The notes beneath the pieces were generated by a model. It saw only the letters and a list, made by a program, of their open reading frames with translations, was not told the origin of the DNA and searched no databases. From Antedon mediterranea (lineage: Eukaryota; Animalia; Echinodermata): a stretch of DNA of 64,000 nucleotides. Below, piece by piece: positions 1 through 64,000 of this stretch (the first letter of the stretch is position 1; each line of letters opens with the position of its first letter). The stretch covers positions 22,427,432 to 22,491,431 of the forward strand of contig NC_092679.1 in assembly GCF_964355755.1 (NCBI RefSeq), in the 5' to 3' direction. Position numbers and translations under genes: made by a program.

Positions 1-104
1 TATATATCCAACCGCAGTGCTTTGAAAAAGAAGTTAAAGAAGGTGAACAAAAAGGTAAATTTGTATCCCTTTCATTTCTCGGTGCCTGGCGATAAGAATT
101 TTAC

Positions 105-32310: not shown

Positions 32311-33084
32311 CATTACCGTGCTGTGATGTAATGTGGTATTTGTACTGATGAATAACCAAATGTATCGGAAAAACATTTTTTAAAGACAATTTTGATTTAA
32401 AGATAATACAGAACACATCTCAAATAATATCAATTAAGCATCATTTATTTCAGAAACATAATATTCAAAAACACAACAATTTTCATAAATACAAACAATA
32501 TGATAAGATAAGATAAAAATACCAAGATGTTTACTATAGTTTCTGTTCTTATATCACAATTAAAAACATTTTATACAATTTAATTGTTTTCACATAGAAA
32601 AAGCTGCTTTTTGTCGGTCTAAAAAAGAAAAATATTACTTTTTCAAAATCATTCCGACAAAAAAAAACTACAAAGCAAAATAGAAAAAAAAAAATTACAT
32701 CCATAATTTCCATTTTCCAGATATAAAAATAAACAACATTGAATTAAAACAATAAAAATATTTTATATAAATTCAGTTATTCATACATTATGGTTGGAGT
32801 AATTTTAATTAGTAACAGGATTTAAAAATGGAAACATTATTTGAATTAAAACATTCTTTTAAAAAAAAATCTACTATTTTAAAAATGTTACTTTTTGAAC
32901 ATGCTTTTCCGATAAAAAAACAGATTATTTTAGCTAATACCTCAGTTAAACAACTTAAAGAACAATCAAGCAAAACAATGTGTATAAAATTATAGAAAAA
33001 ATATCAAGATAGTACTAATCTGAAACTAATCATTTTTAGAAGAAAATGATTATACAATACAACCTCTATACAATGTATATGGGT

Positions 33085-33768
33085 GTCTTCTGAACGGGGA
33101 AGGGGAGGCGGGGGTAGCTGTATGTATAGAGTAGGGCTGTCTCCTGAATGGAGGAGGGGGTAGCTGTATGTGTAGTAGGCATGTCTCCTGAATGGAGGAG
33201 GGGGTAGCTGTATGTAAAGAGTAGGGCTGTCTCCTGAATGGAGGAGGGGGTAGCTGTATGTATAGAGTAGGGCTGTCTCCTGAATGGAGGAGGGGGGTAG
33301 CTGTATGTATAGAGTAGGGCTGTCTCCTGAATGGAGGAGGGGGTAGCTGTATGTGTATTAGGCATGTCTCCTGAATGGAGGAGGGGGATAGCTGTATGTA
33401 TAGAGTAGGGCTGTCTCCTGAATGGAGGAGGGGGTGGCTGTATGTGTAGTAGGGCTGTCTCCTGAATGGAGGAGGGGGTAGCTGTATGTATAGAGTAGGG
33501 CTGTCTCCTGAATGGAGGAGGGGGTAGCTGTATGTATAGAGTAGGGCTGTCTCCTGAATGGAGGAGGGGGGGGGGCGGCTGTATGTGTAGAGTAGGGCTG
33601 TCTCCTGAATGGAGGAGGGGGAAGCTGTATGTATAGAGTAGGACTGTCTCCTGAATGGAGGAGGGGGAAGCTGTATGTGTATTAGGCATGTCTCCTGAAT
33701 GGAGGAGGGGGTAGCTGTATGTATAGAGTAGGGCTGTCTCCTGAATGGAGGAGGGGGTAGCTGTATGT
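33085..33768. repeat. G-rich minisatellite, about 43-45-bp unit, about 15 copies
   Basis: (GTAGCTGTATGTATAGAGTAGGGCTGTCTCCTGAATGGAGGAGGGG)n. Confidence 0.95.
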
Positions 33769-34579
33769 AAAGAAATAAATCAATCCTGGTATTTATCAAC
33801 ATTAAAGAATAGGTGACAAGCCAACACAGGTTCAGATAGTTGAAAAAAAAAAAGGAGGGGGTGTGTTAAAGGAAGGTTGAGTGGGGCTAGTTGTTGGAAG
33901 GACGTATGCCATGATATGCTGACTTATGCAATAACATGGATCTACCTTCTATCTACTTCTTCTATTATTAGCAACTCTATGAATGTGTAGAGCTGAAGAA
34001 TACCACAAATACAAGATGGAAGCACAAAAAGAAGTAAAAAAACAACAGCCTTGGGTTAAGAAATAAATGATGAAAAAAAGAAAGGCAACAACCTTTGACC
34101 TGGGGAGAGAAATTGAGAACCAAGATATCAAAGACAGACTGACGGCAAAATACAATTCAGAAATGTGTCAGAATAATATATTTGAAAAGTTTTGTTGACC
34201 AGGTAGAGAAATTTCTAAGTTATTATAACTTTTACATAACTGAGCATGATGTGCATAGGAATTTTGTTTTTAACATAAAAAAGTTAAAATGACTTGTCTC
34301 ATATAGCATGGTGCACCAGTAACATCACAAAATAAGCTATGTATGTGCAGTAATTAGCTCAGCACCAACCATGGTGGCTTGGTTCTGTAGAGTTATATTA
34401 GAAAAGGACAACATGGTCAACATTGAAGAACATTATTTTGACAACATTAATGGAAGTACATTGTGGATTCTGGGAAGCGTTGTACAGGAATTCCACAAAA
34501 TAAAGAGAAAATGTATTGACCATCAGTAAGAATAACATGTTAAATGTTAAATGTATTATTCTGGTTCTTAAGGAAATTT

Positions 34580-34826: not shown

Positions 34827-34914
34827 AATATTGATATAACAAACATAAGACAAAGAAAGGGAGAAAGGAAGAATTAATTACAGCTTGCGTGTAGTTTTGC
34901 TTTTTTTCACGTTC

Positions 34915-35198
34915 AAGATTGGTAGGTATAATAAATGGACAATGTATGGAGACACCAAAGTGCCATGTAAGATTGGTAGGTATAATAAATGGACAATGTA
35001 TGGAGACACCAAAGTGCCATGTAAGATTGGTAGGTATAATAAATGGACAATGTATGGAGACACCAAAGTGCCATGTAAGATTGGTAGGTACAGTATAATA
35101 AATGGAAAATGTATGGAGACACCAAAGTGCCATGTAAGATTGGTAGGTGTAATAAATGGATAATGAATGGAGACACCAAAGTGCCATGTAAGATTGGG
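34915..35198. repeat. Minisatellite, about 54-bp unit, 5 copies
   Basis: (AAGATTGGTAGGTATAATAAATGGACAATGTATGGAGACACCAAAGTGCCATGT)n. Confidence 0.95.
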
Positions 35199-36330
35199 CA
35201 GATAGACAGTTCAATCAAAAAGGGTGATAGAGAATTATTTGTGGGAAAATAAACAGATTATTAAGGTAACAGAGGAGAAAGAATTTAGTATTAAAATACT
35301 ATGCAAATATATTTTATGTTATTTTGTAGGAATTGTTTTCGATAGAGGGAGATTTTTGTGGATATTACTTTTCTTTCAATAGGTATTTAACTGAGCCTAT
35401 GCTAAAAAAAGCAATTAGACCATTTACAAAAGTATAATTTATTATTTAAATAAGTGATTTTAATTAGATTTGAAATAGAGCCATAAAAACAACACTCACA
35501 AAAACCAATTAAAAATCAATTCATAATAGTATGAATAAAAAATACGAACAATTTGAATAAAAGCATTTTTACATCAATTTAAAATAATTTGTGTACCAAA
35601 ATTTAGATCGTAAAATTTTTATATGCCAATATTGTTTCAAATATATTTTCGAATATTGTCCATAATTGAAATAGTAGCTATTCCAATGTTGGATTCATAG
35701 TATGTACAATGTAAAATGGAATGGTATATACCTAGTACAGTAAAATTCTTGACAATTTAAACAAAACATCACAACCTTTTATATAGATTTCAGATATAAT
35801 CTTGGAAATTTCATACAATTGATAGTTGTAACTGTACAGAAGCCAAATCCTGACTTTGTGCACTTTGTAGGGAGCCATTTGAAAAAAAGATTACTTAAAA
35901 AAAAACATTAATAATCTATCCTGCATTATGTTTTGTTTTTTATTTTGTTTTTATCATTGCTTGTATCCAATAGAAGCCCTATTAACGGGACACCTTAAGG
36001 ACCAAAAGTGTCCCCTTCATAGGAATGTCCTCTACATAGGGGCATTTGTGTAGAATGTATTGTAGAACTGTAGTAGTATATTATAATATTATAATGATGC
36101 TGAGAATAAAAATCCTGAAAAAAACTAATTTGTTTCTTATTCGATAAAATATACTCGGACACTGGTCATTGTGGGCCAGCCCAACATTGCCCGATTTTTC
36201 GGATAGCTGACTGTACCATACACTATGTACATTAATTATCTTCAACTAATAACAGTGAATGAAAAAATAATATATACATTAAAATACCAGGTGGATCTCA
36301 CTATTAATAAACCTTTTTACAATTTCCTTT

Positions 36331-39300
36331 TTACTGCTGGAAGGCTTCCTTTGATATATTCCCTTGAGCCTGAAAAAGCAAAATATAAATATTATTAAGA
36401 AGAATGATCGACATTAGATCACCTATTAAGGGAACACCTAGAGGACCCAACAATGTTTCCCCTTAAGTTCTGTCTACACTATCGGGTACATGCTCGGAAA
36501 GGTCACTTAATGGAGGTATGGTCTATGTGTACATTAGCTTTGAGAGAGACAACGGTAGTTTTGTTTATTCAATTTAAAGAGAAATTGATAGTGATTGTTT
36601 TATGAAACGGTACAGGTGCAGACAGGTCACTTTTAATGGAGGTGCGATCTATGTGTAGTTTGCTGCAATAGCAGAGAGACGGTAGTTAATACAAGATTTT
36701 TTTATGAAAGTTGATCTCAAAGAGAGGTTGCTGTTCAGAAAGATTAATGCATAGTGGTAGTTTACAATGGTTGTTTTGAGAGTGAATAGTTATTGTAAAG
36801 GAAAGGTTACTACTTTACAAGAGGTAAGAGAGGTGCATGGTCTCGAAGACAGGTTTTTGTAAAGAAAGAATAATGGAAAGAGAGGTGAAGGTACTTTGCA
36901 AGAGTTGTTTATGCAGAAAGATTGTTGCACAAAAAGCTTGTTATGAAAACATAAAGCTCTGTCTACACTATCAAACTAGTTCGACAAAAAAAGTGTGATG
37001 AGCCCAAATAATAATGGGTAGTGATATGTCCAAATATGGTAGTAATATGACATCATCATGTCCATATATAGCCAAATTTTTTGTCATATAAAGTTTGATT
37101 GTATAGAAAGAGCTTTAATAGGGGATTCCCCTGGATATGGGTGTCTCATGAACAGTGTTACATCCTATATTCCCCTCAGTATTAAAAACCCGCTTATACC
37201 TTCATTTCCGAAAACAGTTTCCCTGCTCTCTGATAGTCCCACTGGGTCTCTTCCAAACACCTGGTGACAACAACACAATATTTTAATAGTAAGATTGAAA
37301 ATATAAGAATCCGGATACAAATAATGAATGCTTACGAACTAAATTAAGGAGAGTTAAATAGTTTTCAACTCATGAAATATTCTCTCCATTCAACAATACA
37401 AAAAAAATTCATTATGTTCTAAAGTAAAGTTCAATTAATCCTCTGATTCTATCAGTCAAAAGGCAGATTTTAATCGAGGGTGGGTAAACAGTTAGGGCAC
37501 ATTACAGGTTATCTTTATAACTGTATCTGCTGACGATTTTTAACACTTACATTTTCGAATATTGTACATTCATTCCAGAGTCTTTTATGAACTGCGTTAC
37601 CATTATCATCTTCTCATTTTCCGAAGGTCCGGAAGAACTCTGAAGAACAGGACTATGAGAGGGGGTTGGTGCAGCTGATGGAAAAGCAGCCTGGAAAAAA
37701 TAAATAGAGGGGTTATACCAGCTGATGGAAAAGCAGCCTAGAACAATAAAAAGAGGGGGTTAGACAAGCTGATTGGAAAGCAGCCTAAAACAATAAATAG
37801 AGGGGGTTAGACAAGCTGATTGGAAAGCAGCCTAAAACAATAAACATATGGGGTTAGACAAGCTGATGGAAAAGCAGCCTAGAACAATAAATAGAGGGGG
37901 TTAGACAAGCCGATTGGAAAGCAGCCTAAAACAATAACTAGACATGTAACTCGTCACTTTGACGAGTTTGGTTATCCCCCGCGCAAGTGGTGCAACATTA
38001 ACATTAAGGGGATAGGTTGAGGACAAAAGGAAGTGTTCACGTTGGCATTATGACCTGAACTGAAGAATATGATATGTTGTTATTGCTGAATTTTATTATT
38101 TAAATTCATATATAGTATATACACAGTATAATCTGTATCCATATCACATACAGTGTAGAATAGGTGAAATTACGGGACCCGCTATTTATTGCAATTTTAA
38201 ACATGTTGACGGTTTTAAAATGAAACGCGAAGGTAGCAATTCCGAAAGGAAATTATCTCAGCAACAACGTATTAGCGTGTAGAAGAAATTTGAATACGTG
38301 AAATATTGATGCGCGCTCTTTTAAATGTAATGAATTATGACGCAAAAGATGAAAATACGACCTTTTTTATTTTACTGGCCATATGACGACGTCACAACAT
38401 CCGATTGGCAACATTTTTACATAATTTCGTATCTACAATCCAATAGCTTCCAGAAAAAATTTTAATCGTGATTATCACATTTTATTCTTACGAGCTATAA
38501 CAGATTAAAATTTACTGTAAAGATGAAATTAATGCCACACGTGATTTAAATTTTTAGGCATGATGACGTCAAAAAAATTAAAATATTTTTAACTCATGCG
38601 AAAGATACTTGATTGACCTAGACAAAATCAAAATCGGGGTGAAAATGGAAAACGGATAAGTGGAGATGCGCTCTATTCAATGTGATGAGCTATGACGAAA
38701 GAGATAAAAATCCTAAATTAGAAAAACTAGCTGATTACAGAAAGTTGAAAAACATTCATACCTTTATCTGATTTTCTGTTGGACATTTCAAAATTAGCTC
38801 ATCATTCAAGATCACTAATCTAAAAAGAAAATGAATGAAAATTAATTGTTTTTGACAAACAAAATCATAACTATTGAAACTAAAAGATAATGTAGTGTAC
38901 TGCATAGCAATTAAAAAACACATTCAAAATATAACTAACTGTAAACGTACCTGTTATCAAAATGCGTCAGGAATATCCGACTAAACGCAATGATTTGTGG
39001 GTTTGAGTTGCGACTCTCGACCTCTTTGAAGACGCCGTCAACGGTGAAGAGAAGCAGCGTTCCCTGAGCTAGTGACACGTCCACGATGAATGACGCAATG
39101 TCATGTTGCGTACCAGGAAGATCCTTAAGGAAGGCCGTCACCGACAAACGACTCTGCTTTAATAATTTAAACCGTTGACCTACAAAAAAAAAATATAATT
39201 CAGGCTTTTGGATTTTCAGTAAAAAACCCCGCTTTAGGAAACACCTCCAGAACTCAATTAAGTAGTTATAACTGTCTACACAATATATACCATGTACACT

Positions 39301-42300
39301 GTGATGTCTTTTAGGAGTCTAAGCCCTAAAGATTCTTGTTATTATTTGAGTAAGAGGAGGAGACTGTACATTGCTAATTCAATTATATTTTCTTACGCAG
39401 ACATAGTTTATGCAGATTTTTACATAGGGAGGTATGGTGCATTGATGGTTCCAAATATGGTAGGGATATGCCCAAATATGGTAGGGATATGCCCAAATAT
39501 GGTAGGGATATGCCCAAAAATGGTAGGGATATGCCCAAATATGGTAGGGATATGCCCAAATATGGTAGGGATATGCCCAAATATGGTAATGAGATGACAT
39601 CATCATGTCCATATATGGGCACATCACATTTTTTTAGAGAGAGCTTAAGATAAGTTAAAATTTTTACCTGAATCTTTTACTTTAAATAAATTGCGACTAT
39701 ATTTGTTGAAACTCCCGAGATTTGTTCTATTTGTGCGAGAGCTACTGTTTGGAATACTTAGAGAAAAACAAGCCTAGAAAAATTTAAAAAAACGAGTATG
39801 AAATATGAACTATTGTTGCTGAACCTTTCCAAGAATATGATTTGTTCGATTTTCGTATATGAAAAACAACCCTAGAAGAAAACACTGTTATTAAAGGGGT
39901 TAAAGATAAAAGGCCGCATTGTTGCCGACAACTCAACCCCTTGACCAATTGTGTCAAATAAATAAATAAATGAAATTAAAAACAGGTCTAGAAAGAGAAT
40001 AGTCTAGCAAACATTTGAGCTATACCTGTTCATGATATGCATCTAGTAGCAGCTGCCGATCTCCTGAATCAAATACACTGAAAAATCTGTAAAGATAAAA
40101 ATTGTGAGTCATTTTATTGATTGCAATTGGCAATTCTCGCCCATCTTTACACACACACACACGCATAAATGTCACAGAGAGAATGTTATCCCCGATCATG
40201 GTAACATCCGCAAGTGAGGTGGTACCTGTCAGTAGGACAGGTATCAGCCAGTGGCTATAATAACACAATTTTTTACGTTTAGACAGAGTGAACAATAAAA
40301 CGCAAACATACTTCTCTACAAAAGGCACGACAAGTGCTTTAACTTCGTCGCTGACAAAAAAGCTAGCCTTGACGGGTGGCAGCGCCGTAGACTCGTCTAA
40401 TTCAAATGCGATAGGGGGCGGTAGAACAACTCCATCCTAGATAAGTAAAAACCATGGTATACACAACAAATTAAATTAAATTAGAATAATTTGCATAATT
40501 TTGTGATAGGTCAAAGATTATTTCACACACGTAGTCATAGAAACTCGAAACAATGTTTTATAAAACTTACCAGACGTAGCACAGTTGGGAATATCTGGCG
40601 GATGTCACTAGAAACGAGAGGTCAGATTGAGATATTTAATAACTGCAATTTTGTCAATAATATTGATTTATCTTTCCTTGTAAATCATTGTATGAGTTCA
40701 AGCTATACTCCATGGAAAAAAAATTCATTCATCATTCAAGTCAAACATCGATAAATGCAATCCGTGGGAAATTTCATTTCAGAAACACAATAGTGGATTA
40801 GAATTTTTAAATAAAAAGGTATTTTGCTGATTTGCATTATGTTGTTTCCATCTCCTTCATAACTTTATGACCGTACTTACCGATGTATACTTACATCACT
40901 AGAAGATCTTTCAACAATTTAATACTAGCAACATAACAAAGTAAAGTGTTAAATTATAAATACCCTAAATGCACTCTGAAATTAATTCAGTTATAATTTC
41001 AGAGTTATATGGCGGAATGGTAAAGAACTCGGACTAGTGCGTGAGAGGCATGGGTTCAAACCTGTTCCATATTGATTGTACCCTTAAGCATGCTTTACTT
41101 TCATTACTTTTTTTTTCCCTTGGTTGGAATGTAACGCCGTTGGTCCCGTATACATACAGTGCTGTTGAAGAACTAATTGAACTTGGTAGGCTCTGCACTG
41201 CTGCTGTGGGTCTTTAGAAGGCCTAATCAGAATTTCCACTTTAACATTATGACGATTAGAAAAACATTTATTGTTATACTGGAAAATCTTAAATGACATG
41301 ATGTTTATGAAGTATATTTTGTGTTTACCGTTCAAAATACCAACATTCAACCAATATGTTCTCGGTCTAGTTGTAATAAGAAAAATTTTTTCACATGGTT
41401 TTTTTCTGTCTTTTTATTTCTGCAGGGTTTTTCTTTTATCCGTTTATGTGATTCAGAGTTAGTTGGTCCATTCTCACATACGTTTTTTACTTGTTTTAAA
41501 TTCCAACTTCTTGGTTAGTGTTGACAAGCATTTTTACTATGTTGTTCATATGTTCATGTCAAATAGAATGAATATGGTGTGAATCACCAATTGTATAATT
41601 ATTTGTAATCAGCTTCCTTCGTTCCACACATTCATTATAAATGTTTTTTTTCCCATTTTGTTATGACTTGTGCTTTTCAACCTGTGGTTTAGCATCACCA
41701 TAAAGACCATTTGTTAATACTTTTGTAATAGCTGTTTTATTTTTATTTTTTTAAATGTAAGATTTTTCTGTTCGTTTGTTCCACTATGTAATTATAACTT
41801 GTAATTATAACTTGTAATTGTAACTTGCAAATTCGCCATTGGCTATGAACAGTTACAAGTGTGTCGTTGAGTGATAATAAATAAGATTCATTTTCTTTCT
41901 CCTCATGATTTTAACAATTACTTCTTGTTCCATCTTCTGCTGGATCTCGTCTGAAATCTGATCACTTCCTGTGGTCAGACAAATAGTATCCATGGCCTGG
42001 GCCTGCCTTAGGTTTCCTTCCATACTGGAGGTCAAACCCGTCTTTGGCCGATAAGGCTCATGGTCAAATAAAAAGGCACACTTCACCCACCACATGTGAT
42101 CATGGTGTTGCAAACGGTACCTTGGTCAACTGGTGACCATTTCTTGTGATGAGGTGAGTTGCAGATCCTGATACCAGTTGTCTCACATGTAAAAAGTTGT
42201 GCAAAATATTAAATTGTTTTCAAGTTTATAGTGGATATATTTGATTGTATTTTTGTTATTTCAGAGAGATATCTTTCCACGTATGTGAGAGGAAAACATT

Positions 42301-45300
42301 ATTTGTCCTCTGGTGATGATATAAAGATGTTGGTTATATACAGCATTAAATAAATGACAATATATACCACAATACTCTATCAAGTGTTTCCATCCGTGAA
42401 ATATATTATTAGTGTATATATTTCACTATATTCATATGATTTGTTTATCACAAGAATAAAAAAAAACCCTTAAGAATAAAACAAACAGATAAAAATGTGT
42501 GGTCTTTGCTAATTTAAACAGAACGCATATTGGTAAAAAAATGTTGGTATTTCAAAGAATTCAGAAATTAATTTTAAACAAAAACACTCATGCAACCATA
42601 CAAAATTTACTGAATACAAAACTAAACAGAAAATGGTTAGATCTGGTTAGAATGAATGCAAAAATAAAATAGGTAAGAAACACCCTTTCATGAAAATGGT
42701 ACGATCTGGAAAGTGTAGAAAGGTTATATAAACAATTAGACTGTTATCAAATTTGGGCAAGCCCATTCACTAAATGGGTGATACATTTGTTTACCTGACA
42801 TAATCTGTCTTGTCTTTGTAAAAATCACACAGTGGATTTCCTTCCAATTTCAGCTCTTCTAGTTTCAAACCTTTTAAACATTCCAATTCTTTTACTCGTT
42901 TCAACTAAGAAAAAGATAGATATAGATAAAATTGCTATACACAACTCCTACAATCAAATGTTGCATTGCATTATCCCAGTATAGTTAACACATCAGATGA
43001 ATAGCAACTAATACAACAAACAGAACCTCCATTGTAGGCCTAGCCCTATTGATTGAATAGGTGTACAGTACATTACCTTGTTGTGCGTTACATCAATTAT
43101 CTTGAGATTTGGAAGTTTCTCGGCCAGACCTTCCAAGGTCTTAAGAGAGTACATAACACACTTGCTCACAGACAACGACTGAATCTGTAATTTATGCAGA
43201 AACAAGTAAATAAATTAATTCTATTAAATAAACTTTGGAAGTAATATAAAAATGAAATTGCTCCTTCATGCCTATTATATGGGGAGGTTCATCATCATTT
43301 TTGTGACCTGGGAATAGAGTACTATTAGGTGTACCATTTGTTTGATCCTTCACATGGACCCATCTCTGCACCAAATAGGTTACCCCTGGGCATATTCAAA
43401 CAGTAAGTATACACTGTTTCATTACCTCTGGTATATTCTCCACAATAATCTTCAATACTGCATCCATGTATACAGCTTTGTGTAATTCAATGTATAACTT
43501 TTCTTGCTGTAATCCTACAAAAAGAAACATATTTAATCTAAAGCTCTGTCTACACTAATCACACTTTATGTGACAACAAAAATTTGAAAACACTTTGGGG
43601 TCACCGGGTCAGTGACCAATCACACTGATGAGACACTCCGGCGAGGTCCCATTCAAATCAACCATAGCAACCCAGAATTAAGCTCTGTATACACTATCAA
43701 ACTAGTTTGACAAAAAAATGGTGATGGGCCGAAATAAATAAAATAAGTAAAATTGTAAATATCACCCTCATTTTAGTTTCACATTGATCACAACGATCAT
43801 TAGTATCATTTTAATTAATATTTTAATGGTTAAATAACATTACACTACTCATTTTTAGACTTGCTATGTATTTTGTACAAGTCTGATCGTGTGAGGATAA
43901 CCTTTTGACTATAGTAACGATAGAGTTTAAAGTCAGTAATTGTTTCAAAATTATACACAAATAAAATTGATAATGACCGTACCTTTGTCATTGTAAATGT
44001 CACCTAGGTCAAGTGACTTTGTTGACGGGTCATAGCGGTTACTCATTCCCGTCTTGAGGGCTTCCAGTTTTTCCGGAGTCATAGACCAAGAGGGCGGAGC
44101 ACAGAACTTTGTTAGAATTATCACCTATAATACAAAATTAATAATTCAAAATGTATTTTAAAAATACCTCTTAAATATAAGAAGATTTGTTAAAAGCAAT
44201 AAATAAATGACATTAAATATATATGACCAACCTTGTGTCCAGAGGGCGCTGTTATTTGTCGTGTTAGCTCTTTGAGTGCCGCCCCCGCAGCTTGGTCGTC
44301 GACGTAGAAAATCACAAATTCACCCTTGTAGTGATACTACAGTAGATTTTCATAATAAAGAAAATGTTATTATACAATGTAGTACCAAAACAAAAATAAT
44401 AATCATTGTTTATAATTATTAATATACAGCGAAATCTTGGATTATTTGGTGGAGTCATGTTGTCCTCCCATTTGCTGAGGGTTGGAGTCACTAAGACGAA
44501 TCCAGGATTTTTCAAATGGGTGCTAACATAATTATAATATTAATAATCTGTCAAAGTAGATATCAAAAAGTAGCTTCAAAGGGGGGAGGGGGAGAGCACC
44601 AGCAACGATAACATTGTAATTCAAAAGCTCTATGTTTATTTTTTCATTATACAACAAGTAGAAGAAATTATTTAGAGGGTTAAGTGTCTCTTTAGGAATG
44701 GAGATTGATATAATTGCCTTAAAAACATGCTCCGGTTTTTTGTTGGCAGCCAGCAACCAGGTACAGTTAATCATTCATTGCTGTTTGTTAGGTTTCAATT
44801 CAATTAAAAAACTTACATCTAATGGTACAAAAGGTGTTGAGCATTTCTCTTGTAGATTTTGTAACAGCCATTGCTTTTCTACCTTTTTGCCATGAGGAAT
44901 CTAAATAAAGTAAGACAAAAGTTTATATAATGAAAAATGATAATACTGATAAAAGTCAAGCGAGAGATGGGTATGGAGTAATGGTAATAAGGAGTTGGAT
45001 TAGCATGTCAGAGGCATGGGTTCAAGACTTGTCTGTGCCATTACTGCTTGTATTCTTAGAAAAGATACTTATACTTTAATTGACTTGTCCTTCGGATGGG
45101 ATTTAAAACCATTGGTCCTGTGTGTGCATACAATTAATAAAGAACCATATTTGAAAAGAGTAGGAGGTAACTTCCAGTAAAAGACTAAACTGTACTGTAG
45201 TTATTGCTGTGGAGGGGGTCTAAATAATAGTATACAGTATCTTTACAAGAATATCAATAATTATATTACATAGCCAATAATTACCTGTATCTCCACCCAA

Positions 45301-48300
45301 GACATATCATTTCTCTTTGACGAGCTAGGCCCACCTTTGCCCCTTTTTGGTCGGTCGTTACGATGACGTGATGAGCCCCTGTCGTTTCTACCACCATACG
45401 GAGTGCTTAAAAATAGGAGAATTTTTCAATTAATGTTTATAATACTATCTAAAAAGGATCAGTGAGTCAGTGCTTAAATACTATCTAGCATACTTAACAT
45501 TACATTAAATAAAAAATATGGAAGAAAAATAATGTTAAAATTAATGTTTGTAACGTACTATCTACGTTGTTGCTGTTTCTTTCCTTCTTCCTCCATCACA
45601 ACATCCTCATCATCAGTTTTTGACGAGGATGGTGGCGCACTTCCTCTATTACTGTCACGACGGGGATATCTCGGACCACCGCGAGAACGTGAGCCACGTG
45701 AACCGCGCGAGCCTCTCCATTTTCCTCCACTTGAATAATCTCCACGATAGCTTCCTTGTCCCCCTTGGTAATAATTATCACTTCCGTAATAACCCCTTCC
45801 TCTTCCGCCTCGACCTCCGCTGGATTCACCCCTTGGTGCACCTCGTCCTCTTGGAGGACCACCCCTCCAATGTCCTTCTGGAACATGGCTGCTGCCTCCT
45901 TGTCGGTCATCATGTTCTGCAAATAAAAAAATGAATTCATAAATTGTAAACAAGTTCATGACTGCCCTTTTTCCACACATTTAATTATTACTTAAATTGC
46001 TTTATTTAGAAATTATAATCAGTACGCTAGGCGTAGTTATTTATATAACTTTCTGGACAAACTAACTGGTTGAAAAAGTTATTAAACTAAACTACTTTTA
46101 TTACTCATCTCATCGTTATGGCACGCCAGGACGGACAAAACCATTTCAAATGCCAATCCCTAGTAGCTGTTGAGTTTACAAATTCCTACTAGTCGAGATC
46201 GACTAGACACATACCTATCGGTCGAGTTTACCACACAGCACTAGTAGTTAATGACAAAATATACACATCACTAATGGTCGAGATTTACACATCGCGCTAC
46301 CGGTCGAGTTTTAAACACACATCGCTACCGGTCGAGTTGTTTTTATACACACATCGCTAGTTGTTGAGAATTATTTTAGTAGACATGCGCAGTAAGGGTT
46401 TGTAGAACGCCACCAACGTTCAGAAAAGTTAAATATACTTGTTGCGCCCAGACAAAAACCAGAGTAGGATCATTTTTGGTGTTCGCAGCAAAATGACGGA
46501 TCGTAATTTACGGGAAATATTTGACCAATATAAATAAAAAAATATTAGGCCTTTATATAGGCCAGGCCTAGTCTAGGCCTAGTAAAAGTAGGCTAGAGGC
46601 CTCCTTTATTATATAGTTAGGCGTTTTTTTAGTTGGGCCTTAATTATGAATTAGACAATGCCTCAACATAGTTAATACTCTAGGATAGCCCTAATAATAC
46701 ATATATAGATAGATTGAGGTAAAACATTATCGTACCTGAACAACCTTTCAATTTCTTGTTCCCTTAAACTTTCGCGGGCATATTGGTCAAATATTTCACG
46801 TAAATTACGATCCGTCATTTTGCTGCGAACACCAAAAATGATCCTACTCTGGTTTTTGTCTGGGCGCAACAAGTATATTTAACTTTTCTGAACGTTGGTG
46901 GCGTTCTACAAACCCTTACTGCGCATGTCTACTAAAATAATTCTCAACAACTAGCGATGTGTGTATAAAAACAACTCGACCGGTAGCGATGTGTGCTTAA
47001 AACTCGACCGGTAGCGCGATGTGTAAATCTCGATCATTAGTGATGTGTATAGTTTGTCATTAACTACTAGTGCTGTGTGGTAAACTCGACCGATAGGTAT
47101 GTGTCTAGTCGATCTCGACTAGTAGGAATTTGTAAACTCAACAGCTACTAGGGATTGGCATTTGAAATTTATTTATTTATTTATTATTATTACCATATTT
47201 ACTGAGGGTAGCCTATCCAGTTCCTAATAGAACTGATCATTCAGGGCCCTCGATAAAATAAACATACAGTACAGGGCTGCAAATTAAGGGGTATTTGGTC
47301 GCATTTGCGACCTAATTTTTCTGTTTGCGACTAAAGCAACAGAATAGGTCGCGCATAGCGCGACAAGATCGTCTGCTTGTGCGAGTTGTTTCAAATTGAA
47401 GTCAGGTGTGTTTTCCCTATTTAACTGTGTTGTAATTTAATCTCTCTCTACTCTTCGGAAGGCTCAGGAGTTTCCACTAGTCACCGCCGCCGCAAAGGAG
47501 TCGGGTTCATTCAAGCGTACAAAGCCCCTAAACATTTTACACTCGTTGTGATTGGAAGTTCGTCCATTTATTGTATGCTGCCTTACCCAATCACACAAAA
47601 GGACACCAAATACACAGCACAGTGTGACGCGCGGACGACACAAACCTCGTGGAAAATCACCTCCGTTTTAAAGAATGAATATAAAAAAACAATTGTACCG
47701 CCGTACACAGAAGTTAGCCAGGGCGGGCGCGGCAGATACTAAGGATTGTCGCCGCGCAGCCATCAGCATTTTTTAGGCAGTATAATGGTTATATCATGAT
47801 TACTAAATAATGTAATTAATGATATATATAATAATATCTAATCATTATATAGATTAAACAGCAGTATTGTTTATCAGTAGATTTAATACTTTATTCCAGA
47901 TTCTGATTATCGAAAATTATACATCAGAGAAAATACCGCAGCTTTTCCTACGAAGTAGCTTCGTAGATAAAACAGGCTACGTTGTTGGCTTTGTAGGTTT
48001 ACATTGTTTGGCTTCGTTAGTAACCTCAATAAACAACCTCACGATGTTCTATAGTAAGTAACAAGGTGTGAAAATTATTATTTAATGTGTTAATTTTAAC
48101 TGGCGGAGGAGGACCAATTTGTACATTACTAAGAAATATATAATATAATATTTTTTATTCGTAAATGTTTCATTCGTGTGTGTTTTTTTACTCTCAACAA
48201 CGGTGAATATAAATTTCCTACAATGTAAACGTATACGAGACACGATCCAACACAATGAACTATGCCAACTAATACAAATAATATAGCGAACGTCCAGTCG

Positions 48301-51230: not shown

Positions 51231-51981
51231 GTGAGTTAGTTAAACAATCTTATTTTATGTTATGTATGAAGTATTATTATTTTCAAAAACAATATATTTT
51301 TTTAACAATGAATTTAAATTTACAGTGGGTCTTCTGAAATGTTACATTTGGATTTATTGCTGTAAGTATTCATTAATATTCCAGATCTTGCAGTATCAAA
51401 CAAAACATAATTTATACAGAATATCCCACTTTCCTATTAATATTTTTGCTATTTTATCGATTGTTCTTGTAAAATGATTTAATATTATCTGAGAACTGAG
51501 AAAACTCAGCCATATAATGATACAATTAAAAACTCAGAGCCACGGCTCTGTAATTATTAATATATATATATATATATATATATGGCTCTGTAAAAACTTA
51601 TAGTACAGCGCCATCTATTTTCAACTGTCAATCTTTTCGGTTTTGTTTACATAATACACCTCGTTCAATAAAACTTAAATATATTTTTTTATTATGCCAT
51701 ATTTACTTTATTAAACTGTCCAATTAATTCTATCAAATTTTCAAAATAATTATTTTCTCAGTGTTTATGTAAATAAGTTCTAACAAAATAAAGCTTACTA
51801 TTTGATAATATTCTATTCGATGAATAATTTCTAAGTTGTTGAAAAGACAAAAACAATTTATTTTAAAGGGCAGAGTTTATCATCAATTTAATTTTTAGCT
51901 CTGGGAAAATTATATTAGTTGCGTCATAATTATTTTTAATCAAAGTCTTTTAAAGTGTTTTTCAACGAGTTATTGATTACG

Positions 51982-54900
51982 ATGGCAGGAAAGTTCAAAG
52001 TAACAGAAACGAAACCGACATCGAAACGAATTTGTGAGGAGAAATTTAGCTGCTCTGGTGGTGAGGCAAAGTTTTGGTGTGAAAACTGTGGAAGTCGACA
52101 GTGCAGCCTGTGTGAAAGTCAGCTGCACGAATCACGGCCTAAATTTATGTTTCATGAACGGGAGGAAATAATACAGAACCAGTATCCAAAAGGGTTCCAT
52201 GTATGTGAAAAATGGTGTAACCCATATAATGCAGCGTCAGTGAGGTGTGAAGAATGCAGGGCTTTGTTTTGCGAAGAATGCAATAAACATTTTCATACTG
52301 GTAAACTGTCGAAACACCATCGTAAATTAATTCCAAAACCTGTACAAGCAGAAGAAGAGAATTTATTACTATTGTCGGACCCAGATGATGACGACATTCA
52401 AAAGATTCCGGAAGAAAACAGTTCCGATGATTTCCAAACTGGTATAGATTTTGACGATCAACTGCATTCGTTGACATCGTTACCGAATATAGAACAACCG
52501 TCAGATATTTTTACATTGTGTCCGCCACCAGGTCCATTTTTACAAACAACAAAGGGTGCAGCCATTCTTCGTCCAAGTGCAGCAACGTCAACATTTCTTG
52601 ATTGTGATTCGTCTGTAAAATCTTTAAAAAAAACGACCGAAGAACAAGATTTTGAAATGAATCAAAATCGTCAAGCGGCGGTCATCCAACCAAACAGTCA
52701 TTTATCATCGATGGATGAATTAGAAGCGGCGCTTCTTGACCTTGACTCTGGAAACATGGTTGACCATTTTTCAGAGTCTGAGAAAAAGAGCAGTCGACCA
52801 GTTCCGCGACCACGAACGAAGTCTACAAGTGAAAAAGACAAGGAGGACGCTTCTGATGAAATGACTGATCATCAGAATTTGAATCCCGGTTTTCTTCTGG
52901 TTAATGGCGATGAAAAACTTCAGGTGATTGGCAGTTTTCGTCAATTAACAAGCTAAATTTTTAAAATATAGGTCCGAGTTGCAAAAAGACATTGCAATAT
53001 TAGCAAGCTTTTGTTTCGGGACTGTAGACGAAGGACGAATGTTAAATTGAACAAATATAATCCTGATAATTAACGTAAAAGTGTATACTGGGATTATAAG
53101 CATGCGATTATAATCAATCTTTTTTCATCTCCCTTGTCTACCGTCCCAAAATAAAAGGTTGCCAAAAGTACAACTGCTGTACAAATTATTATAAAATTGA
53201 AATGAAAAAAGTTTTACAGGAAAAAATTGTATTCATTGGAATTCATTAAACTGCTTTAACTATATATATTATTGTAGAAGGTATGAAAGGCCCTTAATAA
53301 TGACTGTATTAATTTTGTTTAAATAGGTAAAGTCTGAATTGGACTTACTAGAAAAACTAGGATGCGAAGACCAAGATGTAAAGATTGTGTCAATATTCGG
53401 AAATACTGGCGATGGAAAATCCCACACTTTGAATCATACATTCTTTTCTGGTCAAGAAGTCTTTAAAACGTCCCATCTTCAAGAATCGTGCACAGTTGGT
53501 GTATGGGCAGCCTACGACAACAATCTCAAGGTCGTCACAATCGACACAGAAGGCCTGCTTGGTGTATCGCCCAATGAGAATCAACGTACTAGACTACTAT
53601 TAAAGGTACTTGCGATATCCGATATTGTTATCTATCGTACAAGAGCTGATCGGCTACACAGTGACCTGTTTCGCTTCATCGGAGACGCATCTTTAGCTTA
53701 TCAGAAACATTTCGATAAGGAGTTGAAAATAACAGTGAATCGGATTGGTGAGGATATATCGCTGTCTACCATTGGTCCAGCTGTTTTGGTCTTCCACGAA
53801 ACACAGCATACGGATGTGTTAGGTAAGCACTTGAATTAGGAACTTGTGACAGGAAGGCAAGGATGTTTACCACACCACCACAGTGCCATTACTATCCACA
53901 CTAAACCTATATAGTTTTAATAAGTTCAAATATCAACGGCACATCCTGGGGGAGTGCAAACATATATAATATTAATAGTCTGTCATATCAAAGTAGTTCA
54001 TAACTTTAGCGCCATTCCCACTCCCATTCTCTCACCAAATCGATCCACCCTGAATATTTTTTTTTTTTTTTAGTAGCACACATTTTTCTTTTCCCAGGAT
54101 TTGGTTCAGAAAAGTCAGCCGATATCCTCCTTCGTGAACGTTTTGAAAAAATGCATCTGGATGTCCGAGCGTTTAGTAGCCTCCATTACGTTGGAACGCG
54201 TACCAATAACTTGCCTACAAACTTCAACATACTCCGCGAAAAGTTGGAGGACCAGATCAAAGACAATACTGTGAGGTCGCCAAGACCAGTAGCTATTGTG
54301 TTCAAAGCACTGAGGGTAAATATTTCACTCCGGAGGTCAAAGGTTTTACCTCTTGCTGCCGACACAATCAGTTCCACGCCCCTTAACAGAAATTTAATCT
54401 TTCATACCATATTCAAAGAGGTCACACCACTAATTGTCAATTAAAACTCATGCATACCCGTAAAATCATTTGGCAATCAAACAACACCATTTTCTAAATT
54501 TCAGGTTTTAAATGAAAAGTTCAGTGGAGATATTGAAACTACGCAGCCAAAGACGTTTCCCGACGAATACTTCACGTGTACGAGTCGATGCTTAGCGTGC
54601 CAGAAGCGGTGCGTCAGGTCCATGAACCACAAAGACGAACTGGGACACGATACAGATGGGCGATGCAAGTATCTTCATCAGCATGACAATCGTGTATATA
54701 TTTGCAAGGTATTTCTATTTTTATAATGAGCTATAATTAAGTCGTTTGTGGCTGATCGGTTAAGGCATGGGCGCCGTTTACCGTACCTAAAAAGCTAACA
54801 ATATAGGTAAATACTTGTTTCTTCTTTAGGCCTGTCTAGAAAAGTGTGGTGAAGAAGTTGTAGTCGTGCCCAAGACCTCATCTTGTAATGACTCCGGCTG

Positions 54901-57159
54901 GGTCGGCCTAGCTAAGTACGCTTGGTCAGGGTATGTTCACATATTTCCTCATCTTTATCATTTCTAAAGTTAGTTTATGTTTAGTATAGCACTGTGCAGT
55001 TTAGAATTTATTCTATGCTAAAATAGAACCAAACATGAATGCTCAAAGCCCCTCCCCTTCCTTCCTCTCCCATTCTTCACCTCCCCCTCCCCCTTCTAAA
55101 TGTAAACTGCTATTAAAATCCATCTTATTCTTATGTTTCAGCTATTGGTAAAACACAGTTATTTTTTACCGATTCTGTCTTTTAGATATGTTTTGGAGTG
55201 TCCTAACTGCGGCATCATCTTCCGTAGTCGGCAGTACTGGTATGGCAATCAAGACCCAGTAGATGCCGCTGTCAGGACAGAGATTCGCCATGTGTGGCCT
55301 GGAGTAAGTCATTCAATTCGTCGCAAATCAAAAGTTATAAATACCATTAAAAGGCAATCTGAGAAGTAATCTCTTTGGCATCAGAGCAATGCATATTTTG
55401 GAGGATAGAGACACACAGTAAAGATGATACACAATATAAAATATTTTGTTATTTTTTAGGGTCACATGGTGCTGCAAGGTACGACTGATAATACGAGCAG
55501 AAAGGTGATTGATGGATTGTCATACTTGATCGACTCGGTCAGCTCTGTCAGTAAGAAACCGACCACTATGATAAGCGATTGGATATCAGACCAGATTGCA
55601 CCTACGTATTGGATTCCAAATTCACAGATTGTGGTAAGCTGAAGTTGGTACTGATCTCCAGTTTTCCCACAAAACATAATAACAATAATATAAAAATAAT
55701 AATACGTCGATATATATTATATAGCGCTTAATGCACAACGCCTCTAGGCGTTTCACATTATTATATTACCCTGGTTATGTTTTTGGATCAAGCACGTCTC
55801 GAAACATACTCCCATAATGTTGCAGTCGTAATCAGCGCAATTTTTTATTTGACCTATACCAAATATTGATGAACATACAACCATGCAAATACTGTACTAA
55901 CAAACAAAATAAATTACTAGACTACAAAACTTTCGATATGAATTTCCAAATTAGAAATGTCACAGACCACTTATTTCGTTTCATAGAATTGTCAAAAGTG
56001 TGAATTAAGTTTTGAAACCGACGAGAAAAAGCATCACTGTCGCGTTTGTGGTAATGGGTTCTGTGACGAATGTTCAAGTAAGAAACTACCGGTACCAGAG
56101 AAAGGATGGGGTGAAGCCCCGGTCAGGGTGTGTGATGACTGCTATGAGATACGATCAAAACAAGGTATACAACATTACAATACGATTCCCAAAGCCCTCG
56201 GTTTAAAGCTCTGTCTACACTATCAAATTTTATGTGACAAAAATATGTGATGTGCCGATATGGACATGTATCACTACCATATTTGGGCACGTCACACTTT
56301 TTTTGTCAAACTAATTTGATAGTGTAGCGAGAGCTTAATACCAACTGTAATAGCTGAAGTAACTCAAGCATGAGCAAGAGTCGCGTCAAAGAGATACTAC
56401 TGAACAATCTTCTATCCAACAAGTTACCATTTTATCTTCTTCAGTGTTAGAGGTCCAGGAAGATGGAACAGAACAGCCTCCAGTAATGGCAAGAAAAGTG
56501 GGTGAAGCATTTCAAAATACTTTAGGAATGGTGGCCAATGTGATGGTGTACCCAAAAGGTAAAATATTTACTTCAAACTGTCCAAACTTGGAATAATGAA
56601 ATATCTGGAGACTTTTAAATGCCTGGCCAAATCATAGAGTGCTATACATGCAAACATAGATTTGAAATCTTTGCCAATAGATAATGTATTTTCTGGCCTT
56701 TAGAAATACTGTACTGTAATCTATGGTAAATGTATGGGATGTTTTTGTATCCAGACGTATCGGGAGAAATTGTACCTTTAGGAGATGGGAGATGATTCAA
56801 AATATCTGATAATTGGGAGATTTTGAAATTCCATGTAATAGGTTGAAAACAACCAATAAACATATTAACCTGGCCCACGATTTTCTCTTCCGACAATAAA
56901 AATAATCTGGGTTTTCTCCAACAATTTAGATTATCTACTCGATGCAGCCAGGCCAGTTTACTGGGTACCCAATGAAGAGATAACCAATTGTATATGCTGT
57001 CAGAATGAGTTTACCCCCAAGATACGCATACACCACTGCAGGGCTTGCGGCCAAGGAGTGTGCGGAGACTGCTCTAAGAATACCAAGCCAGTGCCATCAA
57101 GAGGATGGGACCAGCCAGTAAGAGTCTGTAATAAATGCAATGAAAAAGAGAGTCTATGA
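51982..57159 (+). CDS. ZFYVE1: Double FYVE-containing protein 1 (DFCP1), about 924 aa, 10 exons
   Basis: Exons 51982-52923, 53327-53822, 54098-54315, 54505-54708, 54830-54930, 55186-55303, 55460-55633, 55987-56164, 56445-56558, 56930-57159. N-terminal B-box-like fingers, P-loop SIFGNTGDGKSHTLN, DTEGLLG, FPDEYFTC, and two C-terminal FYVE domains (KHHCRVCG, IHHCRACG). Confidence 0.96.
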
Positions 57160-58884
57160 TGAAGATGTATTTAAAAGCAATGTAAAGGGATTATTAAGTT
57201 TTCATTAAGGGCATGTTCAGACTGTTAAATGCAATAAATGGAGATTTATTATTAATGCCTTGTTCAGATGGCAGTTTCCATGAAATTGCTGGTCTGTCTC
57301 CGCTTCAACTTAACTATGTGGTCCGATACAGTAATTAATAATGACAATATTTGGTGTGGAAGCTATTGGCATGGTCGACTGTGCTTCAAATTTGCTTTTT
57401 CTTGTTGACATGGTCAACAATGCATCTAATTCAGTTTCTTTTGCCAACCCTGCCAATAGAAATCCATAAATTACACACACATGGATGACTGAACCACATG
57501 GATTATTACATTGTGTTTTCAATCCAATTTGCCATGAAGAAGTGTGCTTGGAAATAATGCAATTTTTCGTCAACGGTGTGTGTGTGATTTGATTGGTTTA
57601 ATGTTACGCATGTTTATTAGTACAGTATGATCATGTAACGAATGTTTTAAAGAAATTAAGTGAAGTTATTATTTGCCGATATTTTTTTTAGGATTGGGGG
57701 TGGGGAGGTTGGGTTCTCTGTAAAACACAAACATTTTATTTAACATAGTGTTATCTACGGTTTGTACTCTTCAAATAATTTTAAGGAAATAGACATAAAT
57801 GTAAGTCTATAAGTTACGGTAAAGTAACTAATATAATTCATTGGATAAAATATGCAATATATATGTAAATAATAATAATTTACATACAGTTAGAAGAATA
57901 TAATGAATTGATTTTATGTATAATTATCAACATTAATTTGTATCTTTCAAAATATTTTTTGTTTTATAAATTATGTACTGAAACAATATTAAGTGTATTT
58001 CAGATTTTAAAGTATTTAATCCAGTAATATTTATTACTTACTAAAACCACTTAAGTTCAGTTAGTACTTTCATTTTTACTATAAAATACATTTACACATT
58101 TAACTATATGTTATTGTGATCTTCACCTTAATCAGATTAAAAATCACAAAAAATTTTTAGTGGTATTGCATACATGCACACGTTTCATATAAAAGCTTGT
58201 CTCATACTTGATGCAAAGGAACGACGTACAGTAGGCACAATGCAAGTGAGCTGACCAATCACAAGTGGAAACTTTGGATGATCCATCATGTTGTGATTGG
58301 TCAAATTACTTGTAACACTTTTACGTCCTTGCGTTGCGTGGAAGTAGGATCCAACAAGCATTAATGGCCCTGACAAGCACTCCAAATCTGAAAATCCCTT
58401 CTCCATCAATGGGACAATCTTATCAGGTGAAAGATTAAAACAAATCTAACATGATTTTACAGTGCTGGCAATACTGCCAGAAATATATGTGTGTAATACT
58501 ATTTAACCAAATAGCTGTATGGCATTTTTCAGACATCTTTTTGGATATAACAATAAATATATACAACAATTATCAAGGTTTTCTTTTGTTTATTTATTCA
58601 TTCTTGAAAAAGGTGTACAATTTATCTATATATAATATAAATAAATTTTTTTTTAAATGATGCATTTAAAAAAGTTATTACATAAATAAAAGATATGGTG
58701 TGAATAATCATGATTAAAATGATAATAAAATATAAAATTTAAAAATTAACAAAGTAATAAAAGTTTTTTTTTAAAGACTAGGGCTACTATTCCTATTTAT
58801 GAGTACATAAAGTTAATGTCCATGTGTTGATGTTGAGGCAAGACAAGAGACGTATGGTATACCTGTCCAGTTACTTTTATATTA

Positions 58885-59285: not shown

Positions 59286-62200
59286 TCATAACGAATACCA
59301 GTCCAGTTGCTTCTGTGTTGCCAGCAGAAGGCCAGGGCTTGCAGCCCAGTCAGTGGAGTAGATGATAGATGGTAAGGTCTGCTTGGAGGCTGGCAGAGGT
59401 GGTGGGATTGTGTTCAGTAGGTTGCCGGTATTCAGGCTCCACATTCTGGTGAAGCAATCCTGACCAACTATAGAAAAAAGAAACGCATATCAAGGCCACA
59501 GCAAGAGGTTAAAAACAGACAAGGCAAAAATGCTTTAAATATACAGTAATTATTGATATAAAATGACGATCTGTGCTGGGGAATAGTGAGTAGTGAAATT
59601 GAAAATTTCAGACGAGGCGAAAGATTATGGTAATTTTCCTTCCAGTGTAAATTTTGTCAGATTACATAAGAAAGTACAAAATATATGTTGTGTTGTTAAG
59701 TGTCCTGAAAGGTTTGTCTTTATTTAGAGGGGTCTTTAAAGGTAAACCAAATTTAAAAGCTTACCAGTGTAGAGAATATTTTCTGTTGAATCTATCTGGA
59801 AAGGTAAATGTCTAAGCTGATTGTTATTGCCATGGTATTCTCTAACAACGGCACACATTCTTATATCCCACATTTTTATCTGAAAAAATACAAAACATTC
59901 TACAGTATAATAAACAAAAAAATGGATTATGTAACCTACAAGTTAAGTGGGAAAAAAGAAAATACATTTTTTTATATTCAAGAAATTTCTTTAAAAAAAA
60001 ATGTACTACCTTTCCAGACATATCACTTGCAACGATATAATTTTCATCATTCAGAAGTTTCAGACAGCACACAGAGGTTTTGTGAAGGAGTGTTGATGCA
60101 ACATTTCTTCTGTGATTGGACGGAGTTCGAAAGTCAAAACTAAATATTTCACCACGTTTTGTTCCATTGTAGAGAAGTGGTGCCTGTGGAAAGTAAAATG
60201 GGTAAATTTAATTCTAATAATACTAATAAAATAAAGGATAACTCATAACAGCGACGAGTCATCTTTTCGAGAGAACATTATACATATTTAATTAGGACCT
60301 AAAAACTACGCCCGATGCTATTTCAAGACGATTCATCTGATCTTTACAAAGGTTTTCAGAAAGACATTTTTAAATAGTAAAAGCAAATTAGAAAGTCCTA
60401 GGCTACCAGTTTTCTGATAATCTAACACACTTACAGATTTAGCGAAGGCTTGACAGAAAACTTCAGTTCCATTAGTGTTTATTTTGGTCTTCACTGAGGT
60501 CATGATATCAACAACATAAGACTTTCTACCACCTTGGTTTTTTACAATGAAAAAAAAAAAAGAAATAAACAAATATGTTGCTATTCATTTTAATTCATTA
60601 TATGATGTGACATGATGTTTCCTTGTTAAATTGAATTTAATACTTTTTAAATTTAAGTGGTACCCACTTTTTTGTTGGCCCATGATTTTTCTCTTGGGGT
60701 ATTTGCTAAATTTTTAATAAATAAATAAATCTAACAGACTGCATTACAATAAATTATTTATTCAGTTAATCTATTTACTAGGTGGTGATTTTGTAGGAGC
60801 GGATCCCGGTGCTTGCATTAAGGGCGCGCACTTCCCACTTTTGACAGCGAAAGTGAAATTATGAACAACAAATTACCAACACAAAGGTGATTAGGAAACA
60901 TTTTGTTATAACTCCATGACGACGTCCAAACCATGCCGTATGCGGATTGGTTGTACAGAATAACATGAAGCGAGTTAGGACTTCGCTCAAACAGTTGTAT
61001 TTGACTTGTGTGACCACCAGATATTGTGTATCTATTTTTAGATTTAGGAATATAATATCATTCATATTACACTATACTATGTATACAGTCAATTCTTTGC
61101 TGTAACCTTTGACCTGATAGAGATACAGGATAGTAGAAAGGGACATTTTTAGTTTAGTAATATTTCATAGCAATATAATACCTACTGTACCATTCATAAT
61201 ATTTAATTGTACAGTATAAGTAAATGAATTGTTGTAACCTTTGACATTTTAAGGTCATTGATAATAGTTTATTTTACAATTGGTGAGTCCTGTCTTCATT
61301 CTGAACGTAGGGGAATAAGCTGTTAGGAGCTCATTGTACTAAGCCTCGGCATTATATGGTAGGGTGGCCAGTTCCTTTCCACGCTGCCTTTTTTCTCCCT
61401 AGTATTTTCAACTAGGTACTCATTTACTGGGGGTTGTCGGGAATTGAACCCGGGTCTATCTGTATGTCAAGTGTCCTAACCACTCGGCTATCCAACTCCA
61501 CAGTACAATAAAAGGATACAAAATATGATTGTCCTGATTCTCATCCACAGACACCCAGCTTGCACTTGTAACCTTTAATGCAAAAAACCTAATAATAACT
61601 TCTAACTGTACATGAACAACAGTATATTAAGAGAAGGTAGCAGGTCAAGTTGGCCTCACATCAAGACGGCCTCACATCAAGTCGGCCCCAAGTCAAGTTG
61701 GCCCTCACATCAAGATGGCTTCACATCAAGTAAGCCCCAAGTCAAGTCGGCCCCAAGTCAAGTCGGCCCTCACATCAAGTCAGCCCCAAGTCAAGACGGC
61801 TCTAAGTCAAGACGGCTCTAAGTCAAGCCGGCCCCACATCAAGTCGTCCAAAATTCAAGTCATCCTCAATTTTTTGGATAGTTATATAAAATACCTACCT
61901 TTGAACATTTTGTTCCAACACAGTTTATTTTTTTCCAGTTTATAAGATCGATTTGCGACGCATTGTGTTTGTTTGTAGTAACAGTAGCCTGCCAAAACCT
62001 AAGTGATATGGCAAGTGATAATGCAATTAAATTATATTTAAATCAGGTGGCATAAATATTTATAAAACCTAATTCAAAATGAGTCTATAGAAAGTTTGAT
62101 AAATGATAGATGTATATATTATTTATATATAAATAGATAGAGCAATATACCTATGGAAGCGACTATCAGATATTATTGTTAGGATTTTCTCTTGGTGTTT

Positions 62201-63823: not shown

Positions 63824-64000
63824 TTTCAAAAAAAAATCTAATCTATGAATCTAAGTTTTTCTCAAAATCTGTAAGAGAATGTTGAAAAATGGAAAAATCA
63901 TAAGAAAAAAGAAATATTGTACTTTTACTCATTGAAACATTAATAAAATATTTTATTAGTTTAAGGTACTAACTGGACAAGAATATGAGTACAGTAGGCC

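Follow-up and report, generated by a model that had tools for sequence, protein, structure and literature searches.

Does an invertebrate NXF1 gene carry, within one of its own introns, an RNA export element (CTE) of the kind through which NXF1 could export the intron-retaining transcript of its own gene? This question is raised by a locus of the comatulid crinoid Antedon mediterranea, and it was followed in a window of 64,000 nucleotides, i.e., the whole stretch of DNA that was analysed. A cellular CTE has been described in vertebrate NXF1, where it lies in the retained intron 10 (Wang, Rekosh, Hammarskjold 2015, PMC4338338); here and below, cited statements refer to the available parts of the papers named. 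In that paper, the CTE is reported from mammals, zebrafish and coelacanth and as not found in birds, reptiles, fly and worm, the absence from fly and worm being a BLAST result, which agrees with the statement in an earlier, sequence-only reading of the window that the cellular CTE is published for vertebrates and not for fly or worm. The NXF1-intron CTE is also called a vertebrate mechanism in PMC5170612, and the terms "invertebrate", "urchin", "amphioxus" and "lamprey" are absent from the available text of PMC4338338. A literature search weighted away from subscription journals returned no report of an invertebrate NXF1-intron CTE. Mamon and colleagues have reportedly published comparative papers on the nxf1 cassette intron, which could mention invertebrate cases.

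The gene and the intron in question were delimited as follows:

37201..45917, minus strand: mapped exons of the NXF1 gene, from tblastn with Anneissia NXF1 (terminal exons lie beyond the mapping and some boundaries hold within 1-2 nt)
42795..42904, minus strand: 110-nt exon encoding the end of the LRR domain, from exon mapping and protein alignment
42791..42793, minus strand: in-frame TAA straight after the 5' splice site; read-through ends ...DYVR-stop
40608..42794, minus strand: NXF1 intron with the CTE, GT-AG; its 2187 nt make it the longest among 15 mapped ones (107-1071 nt for the rest)
40571..40607, minus strand: 37-nt exon 3' of the intron, from mapping and a spliced junction in sequencing run X5
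42456..42626, minus strand: 5' arm of an intron-internal inverted repeat, long-range and gapped, from alignment
41267..41439, minus strand: 3' arm of this repeat, pairing of which would loop out about 1 kb with the CTE

The NTF2-like exon of this gene matches solved NXF1 chains (E 1e-18), and the crinoid NXF1 groups with that of Anneissia at 100/100, in line with the invertebrate deuterostome host that had been proposed. The boundary ...DYVS/DIRQIFP aligns with mammalian ...TYIS/AVRERFP, placing the exon junction after the LRR at the site of human intron 10, so that the claim of a homologous intron was upheld. We take the human exons flanking intron 10 to be 110 and 37 nt long. The CTE core, with a single loop, is separated from the 5' splice site by 748 nt and from the 3' splice site by 1394 nt. 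The inverted repeat, with arms of about 170 nt, has an alignment score of 79, while 200 shuffles reached at most 56; higher scores were, however, seen in 3 of 89 window stretches of equal size. Neither arm has a further copy in the window.

Several other features of the window were recorded in passing. Tandem repeats lie near 33000-33860, 34850-35250 and 39400-39600, the last of these inside an NXF1 intron. Positions 43983-44124 form a single 142-nt exon where the metagenome locus L022, described below, has two (78 and 70 nt), which is likely to reflect an intron loss in the crinoid. The neighbouring ZFYVE1 (51940-57160) has an exon 98% identical to Antedon mediterranea and 88% identical to Anneissia japonica, and open reading frames suggest a 14-3-3-like gene (near 70-1260, minus strand), a histone H3.3-like gene (about 30270) and a WD40/DCAF4-like gene (about 59800-63850, minus strand) as further neighbours.

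Within the intron, the candidate element is made up of the following parts:

41990..42063, minus strand: CTE-like hairpin with a 6x6 internal loop between its lower stems and its upper stem, a predicted fold with a 23/25 match to a viral CTE unit
42040..42045, minus strand: internal loop, 5' strand: AAAGAC, shared with the SRV-1 half-CTE primer, whereas L002 and L022 have AAUGAC
42004..42009, minus strand: internal loop, 3' strand: AAGGCA, where described CTEs have AAGACA
42010..42039, minus strand: upper stem-loop, the 30 nt between the loop strands, starting GGGUUUG and not GGGUAAG
42073..42123, minus strand: second hairpin directly 5' of the CTE, possibly belonging to the element but weak (z -1.81, 11/200 shuffles equally stable)

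The structure drawn in the sequence-only reading could be retraced in full on the minus strand, the sense strand of NXF1: the helices CCAUG/CAUGG, GCCU/AGGC and GGCC/GGCC, the internal loop of AAAGAC (42045-42040) opposite AAGGCA (42009-42004), and the upper stem GGGUUU/AAACCU with CC-UCCA/UGGA-GG are all present, and the GC-richer island was found as well (GC 0.47 in 42000-42199 as compared to 0.23-0.36 in the adjacent 200-nt bins). The fold of 41985-42068 is predicted at -29.7 kcal/mol (z -2.67, 1/200 shuffles equally stable), and the exact 74-nt hairpin gave z -2.33 (7/200), while the folding energy of wider windows was not significant (106 nt, z -0.77; 271 nt, z -1.42). Since z falls to -0.77 in the 106-nt window, folding energy by itself is modest evidence for the hairpin. 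Both loop-closing pairs have a predicted pair probability of 0.99-1.00, and when the core was kept fixed and the 20-nt flanks were shuffled, none of 300 sequences folded as stably; the spacer stem alone was not significant, 20 of 300 spacer shuffles being equally stable. The predicted 6x6 loop is closed by CC/GG and GGGU/ACCU with 30 nt between its strands, which is the arrangement expected of an NXF1-intron CTE; in the human CTE, positions 32-37 and 68-73 within the conserved block make up the loop, likewise 30 nt apart (PMC4338338). A search of Rfam gave 12 matches at E up to 1, none overlapping the hairpin. The element is present as one copy in the 64-kb window, with no second unit.

A pattern scan of viral contigs returned two records (L001 and L002) with two units each, about 70 nt apart, which we read as type-D betaretroviruses because L002 carries the quoted CTE motif together with the motif of the SRV-1 half-CTE forward primer (PMC4330393). 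Compared to the viral unit L002:296-341, the crinoid core is identical at 11/12 and 12/13, i.e., 23/25, loop and flank positions, and the length of the spacer (21 nt) is identical to that of the first L002 unit, the spacer letters being unrelated (4/21 identical). A match of this quality is expected by chance about 2e-8 times in the intron and 1e-6 times in the window. Leaving the shifted self-match aside, no further site within the 64 kb scored above 17/25, and the best score in 500 simulated introns was 19/25. That about two loop positions differ, as had been estimated, is right for the comparison with L002, and there is 1 difference from the SRV-1 half-CTE primers (PMC4330393). Moreover, the 12-mer of the crinoid 5' loop strand, where AAAGAC fits the AA(U/A)GAC type, occurs as an exact match inside the SRV-1 half-CTE reverse primer, and the SRV-1 half-CTE probe was bound by Tap in gel shifts (PMC4330393). 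The 23/25 match, the spacer and the 30-nt strand distance argue for homology and against a chance likeness, and the crinoid hairpin is in our view almost certainly a CTE homolog. Retroviral similarity around the crinoid element was not found.

The element nevertheless departs from described CTEs. Its 3' strand, AAGGCA, has 5/6 letters of the conserved AAGACA, which is the NXF1-binding motif in published accounts (PMC4330393). Beside the loop, where a conserved 5' splice site has been remarked on (PMC4338338), the 5'-splice-site-like GUAAG is absent: the crinoid GGGUUUG scores 5/9 against the consensus, and GUUUG in place of GUAAG after GGGU lengthens the stem. GGGUAAG is present in the metagenome loci L022, L014 and L012 and in 2/4 viral units, and GUAAG is kept in 18/21 metagenome matches. 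This absence and the poorly kept protein contact residues described below are the two departures that the sequence-only reading had left unmentioned. As a separate observation, the canonical unit (L002:296-341, L022:4359-4405) resembles a tiny intron, G/GUAAG ... CUAAG ... CAG/G, of which the crinoid element is without the donor part.

A pattern scan of metagenomes gave 21 loci, and 18 of them we hold to be true homologs, since they carry GUAAG, which was outside the scan pattern. Fifteen loci (L003, L004, L006, L007, L009-L011, L015-L021 and L023) are retrovirus-like and fall into at least three sequence groups, one of which has TAGGAC as the 5' loop strand; pol domains were confirmed in 2/2 of these loci tested, and a second, degenerate unit lies 70-72 nt away in 11/15. 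NXF1 was not found in viral contigs. L005, L008 and L013 were rejected as chance matches (loop pair probability at most 0.03, GUAAG absent); L005 and L008 may be real short introns, which would fit the CTE pattern because the canonical unit itself resembles a tiny intron. L012:655-750 and L014:545-640 are CTE-like and lie on contigs without an NXF1 exon, and hence they were dropped as support for intron place or host. L012 forms the loop only weakly (pair probability 0.19-0.25); it shares AAGGCA with the crinoid element and has kept GUAAG.

The metagenome locus L022 (L022:3346-4430) is an NXF1 gene, of which seven GT-AG exons were mapped, among them the same 110-nt exon. A canonical AAUGAC/AAGACA loop lies 904 nt into the same intron as that of the crinoid, on long stems that are unrelated in sequence to those of the crinoid (z -3.3; 2/300 flank shuffles equally stable), and read-through again meets an immediate stop, ...AYVR-stop. 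The four cellular-looking CTE sequences share the core only, and their stems do not align. Among 40 references, none is more than 45% identical to the L022 protein, which fell in a lophotrochozoan group with 90/92 support in a tree of 42 rows and with an SH-aLRT of 98 in one of 23 rows, the latter built after omission of 13 redundant named and 6 unnamed rows. A deuterostome placement was not rejected (p-AU 0.12) with named references that do not include a tunicate. Taken together, the host of L022 is quite likely a protostome, and probably a lophotrochozoan.

Thirteen sequencing runs contained part of the crinoid gene, none of them recorded as RNA, and four were aligned over 41850-43520, where X10 and X11 gave only short low-complexity matches that count neither way and where gaps in the coverage by X5 and X6 carry no weight. 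X5, a single run of a single study with the same organism label, was read as RNA from its spliced joints: in one of its contigs, the two upstream introns (241 and 172 nt) are missing, with joints at GT-AG, and the contig continues into the 37-nt exon. Other X5 contigs are intronic, covering 42709-42824 (the start of the long intron) and 41850-42379, the latter as part of a 1500-nt contig over the hairpin. At the 5' splice site, the spanning contig reaches 32 letters to one side and 30 to the other, one short of the bridging rule. There were no X5 contigs within the two short upstream introns, and the X5 word share of 0.36 fits exons plus the CTE intron (0.39), not exons alone (0.15). The skipped short introns, the intron contigs and the word share thus indicate selective retention of the CTE intron in this one run, whose contigs speak for presence and not for level, strand or compartment; the intron contigs may also stem from slow splicing of the long intron in nuclear pre-mRNA.

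By analogy with vertebrate and viral CTEs, NXF1-NXT1 would bind the intronic CTE loop through the RRM-LRR part of NXF1, and the bound NXF1 would export the intron-retaining NXF1 mRNA. The exported mRNA might then be translated into a short, RRM-LRR-only NXF1, tying isoform output to the NXF1 level in a feedback; the short protein encoded by the vertebrate intron-retaining mRNA keeps the RNA-binding part (PMC4338338). We consider it probable that NXF1-NXT1 binds the crinoid loop directly and exports its own intron-retaining mRNA, and an export function of the hairpin as such would be likely to a similar degree.

The homologous hairpin might instead control splicing or decay in invertebrates and not export, with a bound factor (NXF1 or a better-conserved RNA-binding or splicing factor) holding the intron in and the stop-carrying transcript being detained or degraded, giving feedback without the short protein. 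This would suit the stop that, in the crinoid and in L022 alike, stands directly at the 5' splice site and leaves no intron-encoded tail, whereas about 18 intron-encoded residues are added in the mammalian retained-intron product (PMC5170612), and it would suit the 5'-splice-site-like GUAAG of most homologs (cf. PMC4338338). However, the crinoid element keeps its loop and stems without GUAAG, and hence U1 pairing cannot be the common function. The main reason for giving splicing or decay any weight is that the RNA loop is much better conserved than the listed protein contacts. Twenty human NXF1 residues are listed as CTE contacts, and the RRM contacts are mostly to the RNA backbone (PMC4330390). 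The crinoid protein keeps 5 of 19 alignable contact residues and L022 6/19, as compared to 15 in gecko and 9/20 in catfish. In this alignment reindeer NXF1 stands in for human, its contact numbering being anchored on what is presumably the right residue number. Such poor conservation does not, in our view, refute binding, since zebrafish NXF1 works with CTEs (PMC4338338) despite the diverged contact residues of fish, and since the RRM contacts are mostly to the backbone. As viruses moreover export via the same loop, we regard control of splicing or decay in place of export as unlikely.

Another possibility is that the hairpin is a decaying relic of an ancestral CTE, inactive in the crinoid lineage, as its departures from the consensus in AAGGCA and the missing GUAAG could suggest. 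For run X6, from a second organism (organism B), 34 substitutions are listed over 945 letters of the intron, and the conservation of the hairpin (1 change vs. 2.8 expected, p 0.23) and of the island (p 0.34) was not significant, which would also agree with a loss of constraint. Its sole change in the hairpin, A42015 to G, turns a U-A into a U-G and keeps the pair. Within 41963-42153, a stretch of 191 nt that includes the second hairpin (42073-42123) and was picked after seeing the data, there was 1 change vs. 8.4 expected (p 0.002), organism B having one substitution and one 3-nt deletion there; this post hoc result speaks against a relic. So do the intact stems, which have a sequence of their own and were matched in stability by none of the 300 flank shuffles, and the occurrence of AAGGCA in L012, where GUAAG is kept. 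An identity of 23/25 to a primate-virus element would, moreover, hardly last without selection, and a relic therefore appears quite improbable to us. Finally, the resemblance could be due to chance, or the hairpin could derive from a retroelement or dispersed repeat that inserted into the intron, as CTE motifs do occur in retroviruses and in the 15 retrovirus-like metagenome loci. Against this, blastn and tblastx found no similarity between the intron and the fetched loci outside the core, and the element lies in the same intron of NXF1 in L022 and, according to the literature, in vertebrates, with a chance expectation of 2e-8. Within the 64-kb window the element is single copy. An origin by chance or insertion is thus the least credible explanation, with very little left to recommend it.

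How old, then, is the NXF1-CTE circuit? Judged by the crinoid and L022 copies, the NXF1-intron CTE is much older than published, and the self-regulating device is likely to predate vertebrates. An origin in at least the deuterostome ancestor had been proposed; the echinoderm copy agrees with this, and the proposed age was probably too low, as L022 points beyond deuterostomes. We lean, by a narrow preference, towards a self-export circuit that stems from the last common bilaterian ancestor and persists in echinoderms, lophotrochozoans and vertebrates, fly and worm having lost it. The loop would have stayed nearly unchanged while the protein contacts drifted, so that either NXF1 would read the loop in a way not expected from the human structure, or there would be a second reader that is conserved. 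If so, the crinoid variant would be a natural test of which loop letters matter. With one AAGACA letter changed, the crinoid loop forms a natural mutant pair with its own NXF1, and it separates the NXF1 loop from GUAAG, the two being always together in vertebrates and most viral units. The depth of CTE conservation, down to fish, has been used to argue that retroviruses took the element from their host (PMC4338338). With copies in this same intron in an echinoderm and probably in a lophotrochozoan, the origin would shift to early deuterostomes or bilaterians, and a host origin of the viral CTE would become very hard to doubt. The purpose of the retained intron and of the short NXF1, which is open in mammals, would become testable in echinoderm embryos.

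Among known systems, the gamma-CTE in murine leukemia virus pol (PMC4174252) is likewise an NXF1-dependent stem-loop with a described AAGACA loop, but, compared by description only, it differs in lying in a viral coding region and in needing several copies. Drosophila sbr/Dm-nxf1 also has an intron-keeping nxf1 transcript, and whether SBR targets this transcript is stated as unknown (PMC8151460); in contrast to the crinoid, no CTE was found in the fly by BLAST (PMC4338338). The type-D betaretroviral CTE (MPMV, SRV-1) shares 23/25 loop and flank letters and the 21-nt spacer length with the crinoid element, whereas the viral element consists of two units in direct repeat and the crinoid element of one, with spacer and lower stems unrelated in sequence. 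Closest is the CTE of vertebrate NXF1 intron 10 (PMC4338338), with which the crinoid element shares the place in NXF1's own intron after the LRR, a single 6x6 loop with 30 nt between the strands, a position nearer the 5' splice site (as in human, zebrafish and coelacanth) and, on retention of the intron, an early stop with which the NXT1- and pore-binding domains would be lost. Compared by description and not letter by letter, the crinoid element differs in its invertebrate host, AAGGCA, the absence of a splice-site-like sequence and the immediate stop. Since two described features are missing and binding is argued from related elements, we file the crinoid element as a putative variant that would work like the NXF1-intron CTE, set off by AAGGCA and the absence of GUAAG.
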